A DNA stretch of 64,000 nt from Alphaproteobacteria bacterium (GTDB lineage Bacteria; Pseudomonadota; Alphaproteobacteria; GCA-2731375), in the NCBI GenBank assembly GCA_965225945.1, contig CBDDBZ010000038.1, positions 128,001 through 192,000 on the forward strand. Reading direction: 5' to 3'. Shown here in pieces: positions 10,391 through 26,040 of this stretch. The stretch's first letter is position 1, and each line of letters starts with the position of its first letter. A model generated the notes under the pieces. The model did no database searches, had not been told where the DNA came from, and saw only the letters and a list, made by a program, of their open reading frames with translations. Made by a program: the position numbers and the translations under genes.

Positions 10391-12487
10391 CTACTCGGGC
10401 GCCGTCAAGATCTGGACCCGGGCCTCGCTGCGCCGGCCGAGCGCGTCGATCAACACGAGCTCGGAAAATCCCGGACCGTCGACCCGCCACGCCGCCCGGC
10501 GAGCCCAGCGCGCGCTCGAGATCGGCCGGCCGTCCACCAGCCAGGTGAGCGGCCGCCGGCCGCCCTCGGCCTCGAGCGCGATTGCACCGTCGTCGCGGGG
10601 TCGAGGCAACACCGCCCGGTCGCGCGGATGGACGATCCGGGGCGGCGGGCCGGCGTGGACCCGGGCCGATCCGCGGCCACCGAGGCGGCGGAGCGCCGGG
10701 GGCAGGCCAGCGGCGGCCATGGCGCTGGCGCCCGGCGGGGGAATTGCCGCCGGCGCCGTGCTCGCCGGCAGTTGATCGAACACCCGGTACAGCAACGGCG
10801 CCGCGGTATTGACGCCGAAGTGGCCCGGCAACGGCGCGCCGTCGGGTCGGCCGACCCACACGCCGACCGTGTGATCGGCGGTGAAGCCGATCGCCCAGGC
10901 GTCACGGAACCCGTAGGAAGTGCCGGTCTTGTGGGCGATGCGTCGTCCCGCCGCGCGTCTTCCGCCGACGGCGTTCATGCTCCGGAGGATGCGGACGACC
11001 TGCCAGCGGGCGAGCGGGCGAAGTAGCGGCTCCCTCGCCGCCACGTTTCCCGGCGCGTCGGCGAGATGGCGCAGCGGGCGGACCCGCCCGTCGCTCGCCA
11101 GCGCGGCATAGAGCCGGACCAAATCCTCCAGCGTGATCCCGACCCCGCCGAGCGCCACCGCCAGACCCGGCCGCGCGTCGGGGGCGCCGAGGGCCAGGGC
11201 GATGCCTTCGCGCCGCAGCCGTTCGACGAAGGCGACCGGGCCCAACCTGTCGAGCAGCGCCACCGCCGGCACGTTCAGCGACAGGCGCAGGGCCTCCGCC
11301 AGGCTGATCTCGCCATAATGCCGGTCCATGAAGTTGGCCGGCGCGTAGTCGCCGAACTGGGTTGGCGCGTCCTCGACGATCGTCGCGGGGTGGGCGAGGC
11401 CGCGATCGAAGGCGAGGCCATAGATGATCGGCTTCAGGGTGGAACCCGGGGAGCGGACGGCGCGGGCGAAATCGACCCGGCCGTGACGCGTCGCATCGTG
11501 GAAGTCGGCGCTTCCGACGTGGGCCCGAACCGCGCGGCCAGCGTTGGCGACGACCAGAATCGCCACGTTGCCCGCCTGACCCACCTCGCGTGCCCAATCG
11601 CGGTCCATGGTTTGCAAGCGGCGCTGCAACACCGCGTCGAGGGTGGCGCGCACGACCGTGCCGTCGGGCGTGCCGGCACGCAGGCGATCGGCGAGATGGG
11701 GTGCCAGGAAGGCGGTCCGGCGGCGCGAGCGGCCCACCGGCTCGCGACGGGCCAAGGCGATCTCCGCCTTGGCGTAGCCCGCCCGCTCAGCCACCCGTGC
11801 CAACACCAGGTCCCGAACCGTTCGCGCCGCCGCCGGCGCGCGGTCGGGGCGGAGCCGGCCGGGCGCCCTCGGCAGGGCCACCAGCAAGGCCGCCTCGCCG
11901 GCCGTCAGCGCCTTCGGCTCGCGCCCGAAGTAGGCGCGCGAGGCCGCGCGCACGCCTTCCAGATTGCCGCCGAAGGGGGCGAGCGTCAGATACATGTCGA
12001 GGATCTCGTCCTTGGTGTGCCGCCGCTCGAGCTGGAGGGCGCGGAACATCTCGACCAGCTTGGCAGCCAGGCCGCGCGGACGCGGTCCCAGCAAGCGCGC
12101 CGTCTGCATGGTAAGGGTGGAGGCGCCGGAGACGATCCGGCCCGCCACCACGGCCTGTCCCGCCGCCCGCGCCAAAGCCAGCGGATCGACGCCCGGGTGA
12201 TCCCGGAAGCGCTTGTCCTCGAAGGCGATCAGCATCCGGATGTAGCGCGGATCGACCTCGCCGGCCCGGGTCGGCAGGCGAGCCATCCCGTCCGCGCTCA
12301 GATAGGACCGCAGCAGCCGGCCCTCCCGGTCGACGACCTCGGTCGAGAGGCGTTCGAGGCGGGAGAGGTCGGGCAGATAAACCGAATCGAGCAGCCGAAA
12401 GCCACCGAGCGCCAGGAGGCCGATCGCCGCCACCGCCAGGCCCGAGGCCGAGAGCCGGCCTCGGGAACTTTTGAGTCCGACTCTCAA
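10391..12487 (-). CDS. pbpC: Penicillin-binding protein 1C (transglycosylase/transpeptidase)
   Basis: EDKRF..HPGVDP, SGASTLTMQTAR, SPGSTLKP, SLN, KTGTSYGFRDAW; probable TTG start overlapping the stop of the upstream alpha-2-macroglobulin gene. Confidence 0.9.
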   Translation of the reverse strand: MRVGLKSSRGRLSASGLAVAAIGLLALGGFRLLDSVYLPDLSRLERLSTEVVDREGRLLRSYLSADGMARLPTRAGEVDPRYIRMLIAFEDKRFRDHPGVDPLALARAAGQAVVAGRIVSGASTLTMQTARLLGPRPRGLAAKLVEMFRALQLERRHTKDEILDMYLTLAPFGGNLEGVRAASRAYFGREPKALTAGEAALLVALPRAPGRLRPDRAPAAARTVRDLVLARVAERAGYAKAEIALARREPVGRSRRRTAFLAPHLADRLRAGTPDGTVVRATLDAVLQRRLQTMDRDWAREVGQAGNVAILVVANAGRAVRAHVGSADFHDATRHGRVDFARAVRSPGSTLKPIIYGLAFDRGLAHPATIVEDAPTQFGDYAPANFMDRHYGEISLAEALRLSLNVPAVALLDRLGPVAFVERLRREGIALALGAPDARPGLAVALGGVGITLEDLVRLYAALASDGRVRPLRHLADAPGNVAAREPLLRPLARWQVVRILRSMNAVGGRRAAGRRIAHKTGTSYGFRDAWAIGFTADHTVGVWVGRPDGAPLPGHFGVNTAAPLLYRVFDQLPASTAPAAIPPPGASAMAAAGLPPALRRLGGRGSARVHAGPPPRIVHPRDRAVLPRPRDDGAIALEAEGGRRPLTWLVDGRPISSARWARRAAWRVDGPGFSELVLIDALGRRSEARVQILTAPE

Positions 12488-13848
12488 CGCGTGATCTCCA
12501 GCCACCCCGTCGGCCCGCGCGCGTGATAGCGCGGCTTGTACATGTCCTCGACGAAACTGCCGGGGTTGACGAAGCGGCCCGGCGTCACCGCGCGGGCGAC
12601 ATAGGCGACGGCGAAGCGGCGGCGATTGCCCCGGATGTCGAGCGCCGCGACATAGCGGTCGTCCCGCGCCGCCTCGAAGGCGGTGCGGCTCAACGGCGGC
12701 AGGAAGGTGAAGCCTCGTTTTTGGGTGCCGCCGAGGGCCGCGTTCTCGATCTCGAGCCCCGCCGGCAATAGGTCGACGACCAGCACCTCCCGCTCGCCGG
12801 ATGCCTTCGCCTCGCCCTCGACCAGCACCACCAGCCGATCGTTCCGCCGGATGCTCGCCGGGTCGACCTCGCCGCCGTCGAGGCTGAAATAGCGCCGCAG
12901 AATTGTGAAGCCGTTCTCGACCGCCTCGGGCGGCGTCGAGGGCACGCCGCGCCGGCTCTCGATGACCCGCACCGGATGGTCGCTCCGGTTCCGGATCGCC
13001 ACGCCTTCGGCGTCGTCGACCGCGAGGCGCACGCGGATCGGCTTGCCGGGGGAGCTCCGGGGCGTGCCGTCGATGGCGACGTCGAGCGCGCCGACGGCGT
13101 CGGTGAAGGCGTTCGTCGCCAACAGCAGCCAAGCCTGCTCCTGGGTGGAGAACCAGCGGCGCTGGTCGAATTGGCTCTCGATCAGCTCGGCCACCCGTTG
13201 ACGCCGCGCCGGCGTCGTCGAGAGCTCGGCCAGCAACGTCGCCAGCGCCGCGCCGTCGCGAAGGTCGGAGCCATAGTCTCGGATCGCCAACCCCTTCGGC
13301 CTTCGCTGGCGGAGTGCCGCGGCGAACAACGGCTCGGCCCGCGCCGCCTCGCCCAGGATGGTGAGCGCGCCCGCCACATGACCTAGCGCCAACCGTGTCT
13401 GCAGCCGCGCCGTGTAGTTGTCGGCGAAGTAGCGCGCCTCGCTCGCCTTCACCGCGCCGACGCGGGCGAGCGTGTAGAGGGCGTAGGCCCGGGCATGGAG
13501 CCCGCTGTTTGAGCGCCGCGCGTTGTAGCGGACCAGCCAGTTCTTGGCATGGTCGTAAGCCGCCGCCGGCACCGTGTGGCCGCGCTCTCGCGCCCGGGTC
13601 AGAAAGTCGAAGGCATAGGCGGTGAGCCAGGCATGGGAAACGCCGAAGGATTGCCAGACGGCGAAGGCACCGTCGGCGCGCTGGCGATCGAGCACGCGGG
13701 TGATGGCGCGGTCGATCCGGCGCTGCTGCGCCAAGCGGCCGGGCGCCACGCCCCAACTCGTCTGCAGGCCCGCCGCCACCAGGGTCGGGAGCGCGCGGGA
13801 AATCGTCTGTTCCGTGCAGCCGTAGGGATAGTCCCGCAGGCTCGCCAA
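12484..13848 (-). pseudogene. Bacterial alpha-2-macroglobulin, C-terminal remnant (3' exon of the intron)
   Basis: Thioester motif YPYGCTEQ, YGS.LRD, STQE.AW, VDLLPAGLEIEN, RDDRYVAA, VEDMY.P; upstream of pbpC as usual; 5' part absent from the window. Confidence 0.88.
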
Positions 13849-14076
13849 GTTACGGTAGGAATGCGCATTGCTGCGCACCCCCCGCGGTTACGGTAGGAAT
13901 GCGCATTGCTGCGCACCCCCCGCGGTTACGGTAGGAATGCGCATTGCTGCGCACCCCCCGCAGTTACGGTAGGAATGCGCATTGCTGCGCACCCCCCGCG
14001 GTTACGGTAGGAATGCGCATTGCTGCGCACCCCCCGCGGTTACGGTAGGAATGCGCATTGCTGCGCACCCCCCGCG
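13849..14076 (-). repeat. Six tandem 38-bp units, each a group II intron domain VI/3' end
   Basis: Unit (+) gttacggtaggaatgcgcattgctgcgcaccccccgcg starts at 13849, 13887, 13925, 13963, 14001, 14039; one variant base (a at 13962); no spacers. Confidence 0.97.
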
Positions 14077-15957
14077 CAGATCCGGACGTGGTCGTTGAAC
14101 CATCCGGCTCCTACCTCGGGTGCTTGACGGCAAACCGCTGGTCCGGCCATGGGTGGCGGATGGAGGCGCGTGGCCACAGGATTTCGGTCATGCGCTCCAG
14201 TCGCTTCCAACTAAATCGGGCTCGCTGGGACCGGCGGCGTAGCGCCCGCATCCACCGGCGTTGCAGCCTGCGGAGGAACGCACGGATGAACCGGCCTGAC
14301 CCTGGGACGGCAAAGTAGTTGAGCCAGCCATTGCAGACTCGCCCCAGCCACCTACCAACTTCCCAGATGTCGTGGTGCCAGCGCTTGCGGAGCACCTCGT
14401 CGATGCGCGCCAGGGTCCTGTTGACCCGTTTGGCGACCGGTTTGCGACCAAGCCGAAAGCGTCCTCTCAGGGTCGTCGTGCAATAGTGCGTGAGGCCCAG
14501 AAAGTCGAAAGTCTCCGGCTTGCCCACCCCGCGCTGGCGCCGGTTCAAATCCGCGAACCGGCCAAACTCCACGAGGCGGGTCTTGTCCTGGTGGAGGCTG
14601 AGACCGAACCGGGCCAGCCTCTCCCGAACGTCGCGGAGGTACCGCTCCGCATCCCGCTTGTGTTGGAACCCGACAACGATATCGTCAGCGTAACGGACGA
14701 TGATCGCTTCGCCATCCGGGACGTTCGGGCGCCATTTCTTGTGGAACCACAAGTCGAGCACGTAATGCAGGAACACGTTCGCCAAGACGGGGGAGACTAT
14801 TGCCCCCTGCGGCGTGCCCATACCCGTATCTGCCCATGACCCACTCTCTATGACGCCGGCGTTCAGCCATTTCCAGATCAGACGGATGACCCGCCTGTCT
14901 CCGATGCGGTGCTCTAGGAACCTGATCAACCAATCCCGCGGGATCGTGTCGAAGTACGCCCGGAGGTCTGCATCGACTATCCAGCTGACCTTGCGCCGTT
15001 TTATCCCGAAGGCCAGGGCATCGAGCGCATCGTGCGCCCCCCGCCCCGGTCGGAACCCGTAGCTGAAGCCAAGAAACACCACCTCGTAGATCGGTGTCAG
15101 GATCACATCCACAACCGCCTTCTGGACGACCTTGTCCTCCAGCGCCGCGATCCCGAGCGGTCGTGTCCCCCCGTCCGGCTTGGGTATCTCTACCCGCCGA
15201 ACCGGCGGCGCCCGGTACGCTCCCCCTCTGTGCAGGCGCCGGTGCAGGTCGAGCAGGCGCTCATCCAGACCCTCGCCGTACATGTCCCACGTAACGCCGT
15301 CGACACCGGCTGCTGCGTCCTTCTTCAATGCGAAGTAGGCCGCACCGAGCGCGTCCGGCGTAATGTGGTGGAAGAGCGCAGTGAGACCTTCCTTCGGGTT
15401 TCTCTCTGCAGCTTTCCGTATCCGGGCCGCCGCCTGTGGCACGCTTACCCGACACTGGGTTCGGCGCGTGCTTTGGCAATCCGGATTCCCCTTGGTTGAG
15501 GCCCTTTCCTCCGGCGACTCCGCAGAAGCTCGCGCTCCCTTGTTCGCCGCCCTCACAGGTCGTATGGCCTCATCCGACTTCTTCAAACCGTTCATCATAG
15601 GCTTCGGTTTTCTCCATTCCCTACGCGGCCCCTTTACGACAACCGGGGCAGTTTGAAGACCTCCCAGGGTCCCAACAGAAGGCGTGCGAACGTGCATGGG
15701 TTCTCTGACACCGCGGGGCTCGCCGACATCTCACCAAAACGACGCCTGCGATATTGCCTTCGACCGATCTGAAAGCCTCGGCACCCCGGACCATCGCTTT
15801 TACGGTGCTCAATAGCCCTGCCCATCCATGCCGCTACCGACGCTTCGCCTGCCCCCTCACGGGAGCCAACGCACGGCTCGCGGAGAAACGTGGTTCGGTT
15901 ACTCCTTCGTTCCGGGGGACTTGCACCCCCTACCTTCTGCCAGTTCGCCTGGCGCAC
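14039..15957 (-). mobile_element. Group II intron, complete inner copy (IIB-type, probably bacterial class E)
   Basis: 5' end GTGCG at 15957; DV GAGCCGGATG...CACGTCCGGATC right after the ORF stop; DVI hairpin ending AAC. Confidence 0.93.
14111..15598 (-). CDS. ltrA: Group II intron reverse transcriptase/maturase, no endonuclease domain
   Basis: AAGVDG, IPKPDGGTRPLGI, SYGFRPGR, GTPQGAIVSPVLANVFL, YADD, FDFLG, C-terminal HPWP. Confidence 0.95.
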   Translation of the reverse strand: MMNGLKKSDEAIRPVRAANKGARASAESPEERASTKGNPDCQSTRRTQCRVSVPQAAARIRKAAERNPKEGLTALFHHITPDALGAAYFALKKDAAAGVDGVTWDMYGEGLDERLLDLHRRLHRGGAYRAPPVRRVEIPKPDGGTRPLGIAALEDKVVQKAVVDVILTPIYEVVFLGFSYGFRPGRGAHDALDALAFGIKRRKVSWIVDADLRAYFDTIPRDWLIRFLEHRIGDRRVIRLIWKWLNAGVIESGSWADTGMGTPQGAIVSPVLANVFLHYVLDLWFHKKWRPNVPDGEAIIVRYADDIVVGFQHKRDAERYLRDVRERLARFGLSLHQDKTRLVEFGRFADLNRRQRGVGKPETFDFLGLTHYCTTTLRGRFRLGRKPVAKRVNRTLARIDEVLRKRWHHDIWEVGRWLGRVCNGWLNYFAVPGSGRFIRAFLRRLQRRWMRALRRRSQRARFSWKRLERMTEILWPRASIRHPWPDQRFAVKHPR

Positions 15958-16804
15958 CAGATCCGGACGTGGTCGTTGAACCATCCGGCTCCTACCTCGG
16001 GTGCTTGACGGCAAACCGCTGGTCCGGCCATGGGTGGCGGATGGAGGCGCGTGGCCACAGGATTTCGGTCATGCGCTCCAGTCGCTTCCAACTAAATCGG
16101 GCTCGCTGGGACCGGCGGCGTAGCGCCCGCATCCACCGGCGTTGCAGCCTGCGGAGGAACGCACGGATGAACCGGCCTGACCCTGGGACGGCAAAGTAGT
16201 TGAGCCAGCCATTGCAGACTCGCCCCAGCCACCTACCAACTTCCCAGATGTCGTGGTGCCAGCGCTTGCGGAGCACCTCGTCGATGCGCGCCAGGGTCCT
16301 GTTGACCCGTTTGGCGACCGGTTTGCGACCAAGCCGAAAGCGTCCTCTCAGGGTCGTCGTGCAATAGTGCGTGAGGCCCAGAAAGTCGAAAGTCTCCGGC
16401 TTGCCCACCCCGCGCTGGCGCCGGTTCAAATCCGCGAACCGGCCAAACTCCACGAGGCGGGTCTTGTCCTGGTGGAGGCTGAGACCGAACCGGGCCAGCC
16501 TCTCCCGAACGTCGCGGAGGTACCGCTCCGCATCCCGCTTGTGTTGGAACCCGACAACGATATCGTCAGCGTAACGGACGATGATCGCTTCGCCATCCGG
16601 GACGTTCGGGCGCCATTTCTTGTGGAACCACAAGTCGAGCACGTAATGCAGGAACACGTTCGCCAAGACGGGGGAGACTATTGCCCCCTGCGGCGTGCCC
16701 ATACCCGTATCTGCCCATGACCCACTCTCTATGACGCCTGAGTCGGACCCGATTTCCTTGGACACAGAATTGGTTTAATCGAAGTGTCCAAGGAGGACCG
16801 GAAC

Positions 16805-17215
16805 ATGACCGACAATTTTGAGAACAAAGTTGCTGTTGATGGGCCTGTGGTAAACGAGGGCGAGCTTGGCTCGTCCACGTTTTCCCCGGGCCAGGTTTCG
16901 CCGGCAGGCCCGCTGGGACTTGGCCAGCGGTGGACGGTGACGCGCAAGCGTGAGGTTGCCCTGCGGCTTTTGCGTGGCGAGCCGGTGGAACTTTTGTCGC
17001 GGCAGTTGGGCGTGGAGATTTTCCGGCTCGAGCAGTGGCGTGAGAAGGCGATCGCCGGGATCGATGCCTCGCTCAAGGAACGCAAGGGCGATCCGGTAAA
17101 GGCGGAACTGGACATCGCCATGAAGCGGATCGGGGAGTTGATCATGCAGGTGGAACTGCTGGAGGCCAAGACGGAGACGTCCGGCCCTTTGGGGCGGCGG
17201 AGGTCGCGGCGATGA
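16805..17215 (+). CDS. IS3-like transposase OrfA (HTH)
   Basis: RWTVTRKREVALRLLRGE...LSRQLGV; AGGAGG RBS. Confidence 0.8.
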   Translation: MTDNFENKVAVDGPVVNEGELGSSTFSPGQVSPAGPLGLGQRWTVTRKREVALRLLRGEPVELLSRQLGVEIFRLEQWREKAIAGIDASLKERKGDPVKAELDIAMKRIGELIMQVELLEAKTETSGPLGRRRSRR

Positions 17216-18123
17216 GTGCCGCCACCTCTCCCGGCACGGGTTTGGCCTACGGCCTCCAGCGGGTCTGTGCGGCCTGGGGTTTTGCCCGTTCCTCGTTCTA
17301 CGCCATGAAATCCCGGCAGCAGGCCACCGCTGAGCGCCCACCAGCAAAGCGCCGGGGACCGAAGCCCTCGATCTCGGACGAGGCTCTGCTGGTGGCCATC
17401 GAGGCCGACCTGGAGGCATCCCCCTGGGAGGGCGAGGGACACCGCAAGGTCTGGGCTCGGCTTCGGGTCTGTCGTGGCATCCGTGTTTCCCGCAAGCGGG
17501 TGCTCCGGGTGATGCGCGAGAACAACCTGCTCTCGCCCCATCGCTGCCGCCGCCGTGGCGGAAATCCCCATGTCGGTGAGATCATCACCCATGCCCCCAA
17601 CCTCATGTGGGGCACGGACGGCGTTCGGGTGTTCACGGTGGACGACGGCTGGGGCTGGATATTCACCGCCATCGAGCATTGGAACGCCGAGTGCGTCGGC
17701 TGGCATGTGTGCAAGCGAGGCGACCGCTTCGCCGCCCTTCAGCCAATCTCCATGGGGCTTGCGAGGCTGTATGCCTCGACCTCCGCCGGTGCGGCGCGGG
17801 GGCTGGCCTTGCGGATGGATCACGGCTCCCAGTATCTGTCGGACCACTTCACCAACCAGATCAAGTTCTGGGGCATCCAGCCGTCCTACGCCTTCGTCGA
17901 ACAGCCCCAGACCAACGGCGTCGCCGAGAGGTTCAATCGCACGCTCAAGGAACAGATCATCCATGGCCGCATCTACCGCAACATCGCGGAGCTGCGGAAC
18001 GCCGTCCGCGGGTTCGTCGAACAGTACAATGCCCAGTGGATCGTGGAGAAGAACGGCTACCTGAGCCCCGCTCAAGCTCGTCAGGCGTGGCACACCGCGA
18101 TGTCACTCAGGCCCGCCGCATGA
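17212..18123 (+). CDS. IS3-like transposase OrfB (rve DDE)
   Basis: WGTD, DHGSQY, PQTNGVAERFNRTLKE; ATGA overlap with OrfA. Confidence 0.9.
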   Translation: MSAATSPGTGLAYGLQRVCAAWGFARSSFYAMKSRQQATAERPPAKRRGPKPSISDEALLVAIEADLEASPWEGEGHRKVWARLRVCRGIRVSRKRVLRVMRENNLLSPHRCRRRGGNPHVGEIITHAPNLMWGTDGVRVFTVDDGWGWIFTAIEHWNAECVGWHVCKRGDRFAALQPISMGLARLYASTSAGAARGLALRMDHGSQYLSDHFTNQIKFWGIQPSYAFVEQPQTNGVAERFNRTLKEQIIHGRIYRNIAELRNAVRGFVEQYNAQWIVEKNGYLSPAQARQAWHTAMSLRPAA

Positions 18124-18452
18124 GACAAACTTGTGTCCAAGGAACCGGGTGCGATACACTCTCTATGACGCCGGCGTTCAGCCATTTCCAGATCAGACGG
18201 ATGACCCGCCTGTCTCCGATGCGGTGCTCTAGGAACGTGATCAACCAATCCCGCGGGATCGTGTCGAAGTACGCCCGGAGGTCTGCATCGACTATCCAGC
18301 TGACCTTGCGCCGTTCTATCCCGAAGGCCAGGGCATCGAGCGCATCGTGCGCCCCCCGCCCCGGTCGGAACCCGTAGCTGAAGCCAAGAAACACCACCTC
18401 GTAGATCGGTGTCAGGATCACATCCACAACCGCCTTCTGGACGACCTTGTCC

Positions 18453-19499
18453 GATTGAGCAACCTGATGTGTGGAAATTCGGAACGCCGTTGATCAGTCA
18501 TCCTCTGCTTTCCAAGTGATGTAGGGTTTTTCGGTGGTTTCCCATTTCTCGTCGATTTCGACGAGGATGGCGGTGACCAGACGTTCGAGCGAGGCCTCGT
18601 TGGGAAAGACCCTGACCTTTACGGTGCGGCGCTTGATCTCCTGCTGGATGGATCGCTCCATGGGGTTCGAGGTTCGCATGCGCTTTTGGTGGCGCTCGGG
18701 CAGGGCGAAGACGGCGAGGCCCTCGGGGATCGCCGTCTCCAGCCAATCGGCGAGCTTGGGGGCGCTGTCGCGGTAGGCCGCCACCAGATGGCCCAGCTCG
18801 GCCTCGGCGGCCTTGCCGTCGGCGGCGTTCCAGACCCGGCGCAGCTCCTTGCCGATGGCCTTTCGGATGGCGAGGTTGGGGGCGTGATGGATGGCGTTTT
18901 GAGCCAGATGGTACTGACAGCGCTGCCAGACGGCGCCGCCGAGGACGGCCTTGCGCGCGGCGCCGAGGCCTGGATGATCATCGGAAACGATATAGGCGAC
19001 ACCGCGCATGCCACCGGCAACCAGGGTCTCCAGGAAGGCGCGCCAGTGCACTTCGGCCTCGGAGAGCGCACAGGAAACACCGAGCACCCGGCGGCGCTGG
19101 TCGGGGCCGATGCCGATCACCGAGAGCACGGCGGCGTCGCGCACCACGCCACCCTCTCGGACTTTCTCATAGCGCGCGTCGAGGAGCAGGTAGCGGATCT
19201 CGCCCAGCGGCCGGTTGCGCCAGGCATCCAGCTCCCCATCCAAGAGCTTGGCGGCGCGGCTGACCTGGCTCGACGACAGGCTCTCCAGGCCGAACTCGCG
19301 CATCACCGCCTCGGCGTCACGGGTGGAGACGCCTTTGATATACATCTCCGCCACGGCCAGCATGACAGCGCGGCAGGAGCGCCGTCCGCGCTCCAGGGCT
19401 TGGGGGTAAAAAGGCGCCTCATGACCGGCGGTCTTGGGAACCTCGAGCCTCACCGTACCGGCCGGGGTGTCGATCTTCTTGGGTCTGGTGCCGTTGGCG
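18453..19499 (-). mobile_element. IS256 family element, 5'-truncated by IS21
   Basis: Transposase ending at 18494: EMYIKGVSTR, LLDARYEKVR, WQRCQYH, RTSNPMER; upstream ANGTRPKKIDTPAG is cut at 19499. Confidence 0.9.
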
Positions 19500-19702
19500 T
19501 GTCAATCGGCGTTGAACATTGACCCCCTATCGGCGTGCAATGTTGACCCCTTTGGGGATGCACGGCGGAGGTCGTACAGGTAGTCCATAGGAGGGGCCCG
19601 CGCGCGGGCCGACGCGCCCACCACGCGGCTGGCGGCGGACCGCGCGTGGGAGGTTCCTGTGGGCCCACCTGGGCGACCGGGCGGCAGGTGGATCGGTTGC
19701 CT

Positions 19703-20431
19703 TTAGGACCGATTCTTGAAGCGCCAGGAGTCGTTTCCGGTCTCGATGATCTCGCAGTGGTGCGTCAGACGATCGAGGAGCGCGGTGGTCATCTTGGCGT
19801 CGCCGAAGACGGACGGCCATTCGCCGAAGGTCAGGTTGGTGGTGACGATGATCGAGGTGCGCTCGTAGAGCCGGCTGACGAGGTGGAACAGCAGCTGGCC
19901 TCCGGTTTGGGCGAAGGGCAGGTAGCCGAGCTCGTCGAGGATGACGAGGTCGCGCCGGGCCAGCTGATCGGCGAGCCGGCCCTGGCGGCCGGCGCGGGCT
20001 TCGGCCTCGAGCCGGTTGACCAGGTCGACGACGTTGAAGAAGCGGCCCCGGGCGCCATCGCGGATGCAGGCCCGCGCGATGGCGACGGCGAGATGGCTCT
20101 TGCCGGTGCCGGTGCCGCCGATCAGCACGGCGTTGCGCTGGTTGGCCAGGAAGCCGCCGACCGCCAACTCGCGGACCAGCGGCTCGTTGACCGGGGTGTC
20201 GGTGAAGTCGAAGTCGGCCAGCTCCTTGGCCAGCGGCAGCTTGGCGCCACTCATCTGGTACTTGATGGATCGCGCCTGCTTGTCGGCGATCTCGGCCTTC
20301 AACAGCTCGCCGATGATTCGCTGCATCGGATGCTGGCGCTTGAGGCCGTCGGCGAGCACCTCGTCGAACGCGTCGCGCATGCCGGCGAGCTTGAGTGCGG
20401 CCATCATCTCCAGGACCTCATGGCGCTCCAT
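19703..20431 (-). CDS. istB: IS21 helper ATPase
   Basis: [29 protein letters not shown]. Confidence 0.95.
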
Positions 20432-25669: not shown

Positions 25670-25869
25670 CGCATCTGCATGTGCAGACGGTGAACAGCCG
25701 CCACAGCCGGTTGAAGGACTTCCTGCGTCCCCGCCGCGGCATCGCCACCCGCTATCTGGACAACTACCTGAGCTGGTTCCACCTCGTCGGCCTCGCCCCC
25801 GGCGCCAATGACCGAGCCTGCCTCGCCGCCGCCGTAACAAGGTGACGCATACAATTCACGCATTGAGCC
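25670..25869 (+). mobile_element. IS1595 transposase C-terminal remnant with probable right end
   Basis: HVQTVNSRHSRLKDFL...GIATRYLDNYLSWF; bracketed by duplicated host sequence. Confidence 0.7.
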
Positions 25870-26040
25870 TAAATCATCCCCCAAACGGGTGAATCGGCGG
25901 CGACCGCTTCGATCGCGCCGAAACATGTCCCGGCGCCGACAGTGACGGCCGTCACCGCCGCCCGCCCGCGCGGCGCGCAGCTCCGCCCGATCCCGACCCT
26001 CGCCCCCCACGTTGCCGCCGGAAATCGACTCCGCCAGGCC

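Follow-up and report, generated by a model that had tools for sequence, protein, structure and literature searches.

The stretch of DNA analysed here, referred to as the window, comprises 64,000 nt of an alphaproteobacterial genome (G000, 39 contigs, of which C20, C24, C31, C33 and others are cited below) and carries on its minus strand a nested array of group II intron sequences that ends in an alpha-2-macroglobulin (A2M) gene. All coordinates are those of the window. A complete group II intron of 1919 nt, made up of an 1881-nt body and a 38-nt domain VI (DVI), sits inside an outer copy of the same intron, at the linker between domain V (DV) and domain VI. The inner body is followed by a run of tandem DVI copies, and only then does the 3' exon begin. 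Intron positions are numbered 1-1919; nt 1-1881 are called the body (B), and the 38-nt domain VI is called the unit (D). The features are collected in Table 1.

Table 1. Features of the intron array and its surroundings, listed in the direction of minus-strand reading.
Feature	Position	Strand	Remarks
Terminus of a multicopy insertion sequence (IS)	18453-19500	minus	Mutator-family transposase open reading frame (ORF) 18494-19453; Pfam Transposase_mut, 252 bits; truncates the outer intron copy
Outer intron copy, nt 821-1116	18157-18452	minus	2 substitutions against the inner copy (18237, 18316) in 296 nt compared
IS3-type insertion sequence, 1418 bp	16739-18156	plus	Integrase-core transposase; Pfam rve, rve_3, HTH_21; splits the outer copy
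Outer intron copy, nt 1101-1881	15958-16738	minus	0 differences from the inner copy in 781 nt
Used self-target GAUCUG of the outer copy	15958-15963	minus	Joined to GTGCG of the inner copy
Inner intron body, 1881 nt (domains I-V and UG linker)	14077-15957	minus	From GTGCG (15957) to CCGGATCTG (14077)
Exon-binding site 1 (EBS1), CAGAUC	15766-15771	minus	9-nt loop of a domain I hairpin; loop position from the RF02005 alignment
Intron-encoded protein (IEP), 495 aa	14111-15598	minus	ATG at 15598 behind a GGAG motif; reverse transcriptase (RT) and maturase (X) domains
Intact self-target GAUCUG	14077-14082	minus	Last 4 nt of DV and the UG linker, directly before DVI; mimics intron-binding site 1 (IBS1)
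Six tandem 38-nt DVI / 3'-end units	13849-14076	minus	Found by Tandem Repeats Finder; the body-proximal unit, 14039-14076, is the DVI of the inner intron
3' exon, C-terminal A2M part	12487-13848	minus	Thioester CTEQ motif; Pfam TED_complement and bMG10

The sequence that abuts the inner body at 15958 belongs to the outer copy (...CCGGATCTG) and is the same as the sequence before the first unit at 14077. The nesting junctions, 15957/15958 and 14038/14039, are exact at the two ends of the inner intron. Tandem Repeats Finder describes the unit array with a period of 38, 6.0 copies and 98% matches. Read on the minus strand the unit is CGCGGGGGGTGCGCAGCAATGCGCATTCCTACCGTAAC; five of the six are identical, and the unit at 13925-13962 has T for C at its first base. 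A sequence-only reading of this DNA had already described GTGCG at 15957 abutting a second copy at its pre-DVI base, the same breakpoint as 14076/14077, together with six DVI units before the A2M 3' exon and two substitutions between the bodies plus one variant unit. All of these coordinates hold, as do the unit count, the two substitutions and the variant unit, and the exon encodes the TED and bMG10 domains of A2M. Intron nt 1-820 of the outer copy are absent beyond 18453, and a BLAST comparison of the intron with the 39 contigs found no partner fragment carrying them in the assembly. With two IS elements interrupting and truncating the outer intron copy, the A2M copy in the window is dead. 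A pbpC-type penicillin-binding protein gene (10391-12480, minus strand) with transglycosylase, transpeptidase and BiPBP_C domains would lie downstream of it; the pairing of A2M and pbpC genes is usual in bacteria.

The ribozyme and its protein place the element among the mobile group II introns. The Rfam model RF02005 (group-II-D1D4-6) matches 15699-15923 on the minus strand over the full model, 1-225, with 163.7 bits (gathering score 49). RF00029 aligns DV, the UG linker and DVI at 14039-14112 over its full length, 1-77, with 35.4 bits (E 2e-5), which is below its gathering score of 40. The 38-nt unit is predicted to fold into a hairpin (-21.4 kcal/mol, z -4.2) with a bulged A31 that lies 7 nt from the 3' end, and this fold looks like a domain VI with its branch point. 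The IEP matches Pfam RVT_1 with 128.7 bits and GIIM with 21.6 bits, just below the cut-off of 23. Its best matches in the PDB are group II intron RTs (7uim, E 6e-45), and the Pfam search gave no HNH endonuclease match. Fifteen bodies extend from the start codon as far as the 3' end, and in 13 of them the IEP reading frame is intact, with 495 aa in 12 and 499 aa in the second body of C37. Judged from its sequence, the element is a mobile-type, RT-encoding group II intron that lacks an endonuclease, and the presence of near-identical copies at many sites suggests that it has moved recently.

The place of the nesting coincides with a pairing that the intron itself provides. EBS1 (nt 187-192) lies in a loop marked as unpaired by the RF02005 alignment, and CAGATC occurs only once within the first 560 nt of the intron. 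CAGAUC is perfectly complementary to GAUCUG, the six bases that precede the intron's own DVI; according to the RF00029 alignment these are the last four bases of DV and the two bases of the linker. As the RF00029 consensus for the end of DV and the linker is GGUUCuG, the IBS1 of this intron is one base off a highly conserved group II string.

The target rule was derived from insertions found by their similarity to the intron and not by a motif, in G000, in a genome of the same genus (G002, intron 98% identical) and in a genome of another family (G029, intron 94% identical). All 11 distinct 5' flanks in this unbiased set conform to EBS1: GATCTG in five, GGTCTG in five and GGTTTG in one. Five of the sites are in G000 (A2M/C31, C34b, C20, C24, whose flank is the same as that of C37, and C34a), four in G002 (L002, L005, L008, L011) and two in G029 (L003, L006). 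A G at position -5 of the site makes a G-U wobble with EBS1. A scan of 185,579 species genomes added ten sites in another metagenome-assembled genome (MAG; intron 99.2% identical) and one in OZ242200, all ending in GRTCTG, a motif which that scan required, so that these sites are biased and do not bear on the rule.

G000 holds 8,685 GRTCTG sites, and therefore more than EBS1 must contribute to targeting. Some 9-12 nt upstream of many insertion sites lies a CG(C/T) core; CATCGC stands upstream at two distinct sites (L002 and the site shared by L038 and C20), and the core is present in most of the others. A variable single-stranded stretch of domain I, AGCGAUGG, is a candidate EBS2, for which the spacing varies and the pairing could not be fixed; no EBS3 was located.

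The V/VI linkers of other introns are used as well. On C24 and C37 of G000 the intron is inserted after ...GGGATCTG of another intron, X. On C34a it is inserted after ...CGGGTCTG of a small intron, Z, whose own domain VI then follows. In G029 (L003) it occupies the corresponding position of an ORF-less, Z-like intron; the domain I of that host is found some 500 nt upstream. In OZ242200 (L050) it sits behind domain V of a host intron that is 70-71% identical to it. A pattern scan of the genome found no unoccupied GRTCTG/TGCGGGG junction left in G000.

A third intron, Y (RF02005, 168.9 bits), was met in the same surroundings. It starts at C24:80986 and runs downward (1236-1460 of L010), inserted 6 nt into the DVI of intron X and directly after the insertion of our intron, such that GATCTG is followed by our intron, then by TGCGGG, and then by intron Y (GTGCGCCGG...). 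Because the loop at its EBS1 position holds CCCGU, which can pair with the preceding GCGGG, intron Y may be another member of the class that also homes into the DV/DVI region of its relatives. Intron Y is interrupted by an element of about 1 kb that has about 60 near-identical copies over most contigs (for example at 25673-25874 of the window).

The arrangement seen in the window is not a single occurrence. Arrays were mapped by BLAST of the intron against the 39 contigs of G000 together with a motif map (Table 2), and junctions were counted by exact pattern. There are eight body/body junctions. The pattern of a unit end followed by GCGGGG has 20 matches, which we break down into 17 unit/unit junctions, one fragment in the flank of C33, and two joins of a unit to the DVI of a host intron. 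The abutments in the window are thus confirmed as recurring exactly in this genome and are not due to chance. No head-to-tail unit/body junction exists in G000 by the same exact-pattern count. Intact body/unit junctions number ten, one per array, in line with the earlier proposal that the target is rebuilt at each insertion. All six multi-unit arrays begin right after GATCTG and finish with GTAAC before flanks that differ. The sequence-only reading had named this phase as the feature that would tell intron insertion from slippage, which should start arrays at variable positions, and every multi-unit array has the fixed phase. An ordinary slippage minisatellite was considered and rejected, the repeat phase being fixed at the intron boundaries in all six.

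Table 2. Arrays and single copies of the intron in G000.
Location	Bodies	Units	Remarks
Window	2 (one truncated)	6	A2M 3' exon
C38b	3 full and 1 partial	4	Partial body at contig end
C33	1 and 1 cut by an IS	5	One unit lacks 2 nt
C37	2	1	Fully flanked
C31	2 and 1 partial	none assembled	Contig ends inside third body; A2M 5' exon
C34a	1	3	Fully flanked
C39	1 (5'-truncated)	3	
C35	1 partial	2	Partial body at contig end
C24	1	1	
C34b	1	1	
C20	1	1	

Two oddities of the C33 array concern its flanks. The two IS elements at 18453-20400 of the window stand in the same order at C33:307776-309729 (99.6% identity over 1948 bp) and abut a truncated body in both places. The truncation falls at nt 821 of the body in the window and at nt 845 in C33. 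A duplication of the locus with a later divergence of 24 nt would account for this, and so would a transfer of the flank by recombination between arrays. On the 3' side of C33 (304538-304670) the five units are followed by intron Y nt 17-39, then by 17 nt from the end of the unit, 15 nt from its start, and intron Y again from nt 47, which has the look of a small scrambled join such as microhomology might produce.

The two halves of the A2M gene allow the bodies of what may have been one array to be compared. In G002 the A2M ortholog is uninterrupted at the homologous point (...GACGCCCCGGGTCTG/CTCTCGGCC...), and the empty site reads ...CCGGGTCTG/CTC. The 1.5 kb upstream of it match G000 solely at C31:258685-260174, that is, up to the exact start of the C31 array (...GCGCCGGGTCTG/TTGCGCC...). 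On C31 two complete bodies and a partial one come after the A2M 5' exon. In the window the 3' exon comes after an IS-damaged body, a full body and six units. Part of the bodies reported as missing from the window by the sequence-only reading is thus found; the deletion at 18452 that it had offered as one cause is instead the terminus of another multicopy IS. The first and second C31 bodies differ at 8 of 1881 positions, and the second and third at 1 of 1623 positions and by a 1-nt insertion. The outer fragment in the window differs from the third C31 body at 1 of 296 positions, and the inner body of the window differs from the first at 5 and from the second at 7. The bodies at both A2M exons represent three or more haplotype groups that are separated by 5-8 differences, and such differences argue for several donors and not for looping by the assembler.

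The outermost C31 body (C31:260175) starts with TTGCG in place of GTGCG, and the G of the 5' splice site is thereby changed (G1>T). This is as expected of the oldest layer, which, judging from this change, should have lost splicing. If the C31 and window pieces were once one array, the array had at least five bodies with six units. The end of C31 could equally continue into the C38 end (C38b), with which its haplotype agrees over nt 1010-1623, and upstream the contig of the window runs on into IS elements and other DNA. Because the C31 end has two possible continuations, the number of bodies in the A2M array is a lower bound that holds on the assumption of one array.

G000 looks heavily IS-expanded, and this crowding may point to relaxed selection. 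The IS3-type element of the window has 38 full-length copies in the genome, and at least 20 copies of the IS at 18453 end at the same base; the roughly 60 copies of the element found in intron Y add to this picture. On both sides of the IS3-type element stands a 16-bp direct repeat of intron nt 1101-1116. Target duplications of the IS3 family are 3-4 bp, much shorter than 16 bp.

It is likely that the arrays were formed by EBS1-guided homing of the intron into its own V/VI linker, giving nested B^n D^n arrays from which bodies were later lost. Retrohoming into the DV/DVI junction had been the central proposal of the sequence-only reading, and it is supported by the EBS1 complement, the spectrum of insertion sites, the use of other introns' linkers, and the recurrence of arrays in phase. 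The steps would be as follows. The ribonucleoprotein (RNP) of the endonuclease-less intron would recognize DNA mainly by the 6-bp EBS1-IBS1 pairing (CAGAUC with GAUCUG or GGUCUG) and by further context, and would reverse-splice into V/VI linkers already present in the genome, both those of its own copies and those of related introns. Each event would nest a body and a unit between the body and the unit of the host copy, giving B B D D, and would leave one fresh and intact body/unit target, so that repetition could lead to B^n D^n. Later, IS insertions and homologous recombination among the bodies, each of 1.9 kb, would remove or truncate bodies, whereas the 38-bp units, being poor recombination substrates, would persist as a tandem array. 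Transcripts of nested copies would be resolved inside-out, removal of the inner intron restoring DV, linker and DVI of the outer one.

Homologous recombination works well between direct repeats as long as 1.9 kb and poorly between repeats of 38 bp. On this ground bodies are expected to be lost faster than units, and the tally over the genome, 27 units against 19 full or partial bodies, fits this expectation. The sequence-only reading had equated six units with about five insertions. Its qualitative part, that several rounds took place, is supported, and its exact count is not, since C34a has one body with three units and C37 two bodies with one unit. Six units should therefore be read as approximately "several rounds" and not as "five"; recombination or slippage can alter either number.

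Several observations weigh against serial self-homing and have to be set beside those that favor it. At the two fully flanked loci just named the numbers of bodies and units do not match, and secondary loss or gain must therefore be assumed. On C38b three complete bodies and a partial one are identical to each other, which fits unequal exchange, gene conversion or unrolling by the assembler as well as it fits serial insertion. The loci in the window and on C33, C24 and C37 are not fully independent, for they have flanking sequence in common: 1.95 kb of IS context upstream is common to the window and C33 (99.6% identical), C24 and C37 share the 5' flank, and C24 and C33 share intron Y as 3' flank. 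The self-site has C, the start of DVI, at position +1, in contrast to T in 12 of the 15 readable 3' flanks of the unbiased set.

The distribution of the arrays also speaks against it. Arrays were found in G000 only: neither junction turned up in the 185,579 species genomes or in JGI metagenome contigs, the unit/unit pattern having no match in either collection and the body/body pattern none in the metagenome contigs. Relatives with a near-identical ribozyme and the same self-site carry single copies only. Over nt 1-330 and 1790-1919, the ribozyme of G002 differs from that of G000 at nt 241 and that of the CBDHDN MAG at nt 208 and 1826; comparison with four relatives showed no difference inside EBS1 or the target and does not account for the restriction of arrays to G000. 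A scan of the species genomes for the intron's 5' end gave 39 loci, of which 14 have the intron or a piece of it; the other 25 have no similarity to the intron beyond the 20-nt pattern, were taken as chance, and were dropped. One isolated piece of 100 nt, at 2496-2595 of L032 (a contig titled as a Candidatus Binatia MAG), has 14 nt identical to the end of DV and the linker joined to the first 86 nt of the intron (96.5%). This fragment of a body/body-type junction in a record assigned to a different phylum could reflect transfer, a binning error or a relic.

Of the other explanations, the one that survives best supposes only a few founding self-insertions, after which the arrays changed by unequal crossing-over or slippage and spread as composites (for example B-D-D-D) or by recombination between arrays. 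We regard it as unlikely, and equally unlikely is its corollary that the number of units records nothing about the number of insertions. The identical C38b bodies, the flanks in common and the unequal counts at C34a and C37 all count in its favor. So do C34a and C39, both with one body and three units and 1 SNP (single-nucleotide polymorphism) apart, a likeness from which it follows that a composite element may move as a whole; such mobility would, however, require use of the distal DVI, which is hypothetical. At least three haplotype groups among the A2M-flanking bodies are not a product of local duplication. Moreover, this explanation itself needs at least one self-insertion and is thus a variant of serial self-homing that offers no alternative origin for the arrays.

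Far less probable is that the nested tandem exists in no cell and that a metagenome assembler unrolled or misjoined a high-copy repeat. G000 is indeed a MAG (96.55% complete, 5.58% contamination, 39 contigs), three contigs end inside bodies, and three arrays touch contig ends, all of which also tells against the nested arrays themselves. The identity of the C38b bodies and the restriction of both junctions to this assembly among the public ones scanned point the same way. However, the junction sequences are novel and are not repeat overlaps, and assemblers do not invent such sequences. Body/body and unit/unit junctions are exact and recur at loci with different flanks, the bodies of one array differ by SNPs, one unit has a substitution and another a 2-nt deletion, and the position of the junction is that of the EBS1 complement.

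The read-level data bear on the same question. They consist of Logan k-mer contigs of four runs, in which no record spans the stretch and which cannot count units or bodies; their cover is ambiguous over the unit array and the body/body junction, both of which are repeated within the stretch. A 60-nt contig of the run X1, which is maybe the source sample, crosses the unit/unit junction (13857-13916) with 0 mismatches and 30 nt on each side, one letter below the 31-nt rule for spanning, and this counts against an artefact. Words of the intron are far deeper than those of the exon (for example 119.6 against 3.3 in X1), a ratio that is not a copy number.

Least probable of all is an RT error, in which the enzyme, during one retrohoming event, copied DVI, stalled at domain V and re-initiated at the intron 3' end to give several DVI, the tandem bodies having a separate origin: group II RTs are known to switch templates and arrays of one body with three units exist, but such an error leaves eight exact body/body junctions unexplained, needs homology of the DVI start with each of the different 3' exons, where none is present, and, by template switching from the RNA 5' end, would yield the head-to-tail unit/body junctions that are not seen.

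If serial self-homing is accepted, the retroelement gains a permanent and harmless landing site in its own most conserved RNA motif, where it can stack without new damage to the host. A tentative extension, which we think somewhat doubtful, is that the V/VI linker of its own class, its own copies among them, serves as a self-renewing safe harbor without host cost, since the inner copy would splice out first and leave the outer ribozyme restored, that a transcript nested n deep releases n active lariat RNPs and so acts as a copy-number amplifier, and that the DVI arrays, being resistant to recombination, are a fossil record of the rounds. In a bacterium that is host-associated and IS-ridden, introns would in this way multiply within introns. 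The arrays are relevant to the spread of group II introns in genomes under relaxed selection, and that spread is in turn linked to the question of how spliceosomal introns arose. Arrays of bodies and DVI units also form a natural experiment on insertion versus recombinational loss, and the very short target rule (a 6-bp EBS1 with context) is easily testable. Annotation pipelines are reported to miss or exclude twintrons (PMC8919778, PMC4028801), and similar structures may for that reason be overlooked elsewhere.

The closest known system is that of Methanosarcina acetivorans (Dai & Zimmerly 2003), in which, according to the summaries in PMC4424553 and PMC2882425, up to five introns are nested, insertion is balanced by recombinational deletion, and the homing site is perpetual. 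Repeated homing into introns, recombinational loss and renewal of the target are thus features that both systems have. There the host is an archaeon, different introns invade each other, the targets are, by the title of the 2003 paper, the ORFs of related introns (domain IV), and coding flanking exons are lacking. The present host, in contrast, is a bacterium, and insertion takes place at the 2-3-nt linker that separates domains V and VI, not in the ORF or domain IV of a relative. The intron enters its own copies in addition to those of relatives, a run of bodies is joined to a run of DVI units, and one array interrupts a protein gene.

Other nested or tandem introns share single features with the array. 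Thermosynechococcus elongatus has twintrons at a conserved domain IV site, for which a route of proliferation was proposed; as they are presented in PMC2882425, an ORF-less intron has entered domain IV of an intron from another family, where it separates two start codons, at one level, with neither self-insertion nor arrays. Insertion of a group II intron into a copy of itself is described for cox1i1149g2 in the mitochondria of the lycophyte Phlegmariurus (PMC7049729). There, so far as that account goes, a plant mitochondrial intron has entered its own domain IV at one level, the inner copy is degenerate, splicing was not seen, and arrays do not figure. EcKTE56.groEL integrates in tandem, a second copy entering the site rebuilt by the first while the IBS pairing survives (PMC12584367), and in that reuse of a rebuilt site it resembles the present intron. 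Its copies, in the portion of PMC12584367 that deals with them, stand head to tail, the 3' end joined to the next GTGCG, which is the junction with a count of zero in G000. Several 3'-terminal intron domains downstream of one body are known from C.te.I1 of Clostridium tetani, where repeated DV/DVI with separate exon ORFs allow alternative splicing (PMC4424553, PMC3919590). In the descriptions given there each repeat comprises DV and DVI before a different exon, whereas the present units are DVI only and abut without an exon between them.

The sequence-only reading had called the self-renewing array form unfamiliar. Repeated nested homing is already in print, on the evidence of what PMC4424553 relates; self-homing at the V/VI linker (J5/6) with DVI arrays, on the other hand, had no description in a full-text literature search whose reach excluded supplements and the original 2003 study of M. 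acetivorans. The present case is thus a nested group II intron array that differs from the known ones in its J5/6 target, its largely self-directed insertion, its form of a body run followed by a DVI run, and its bacterial host.

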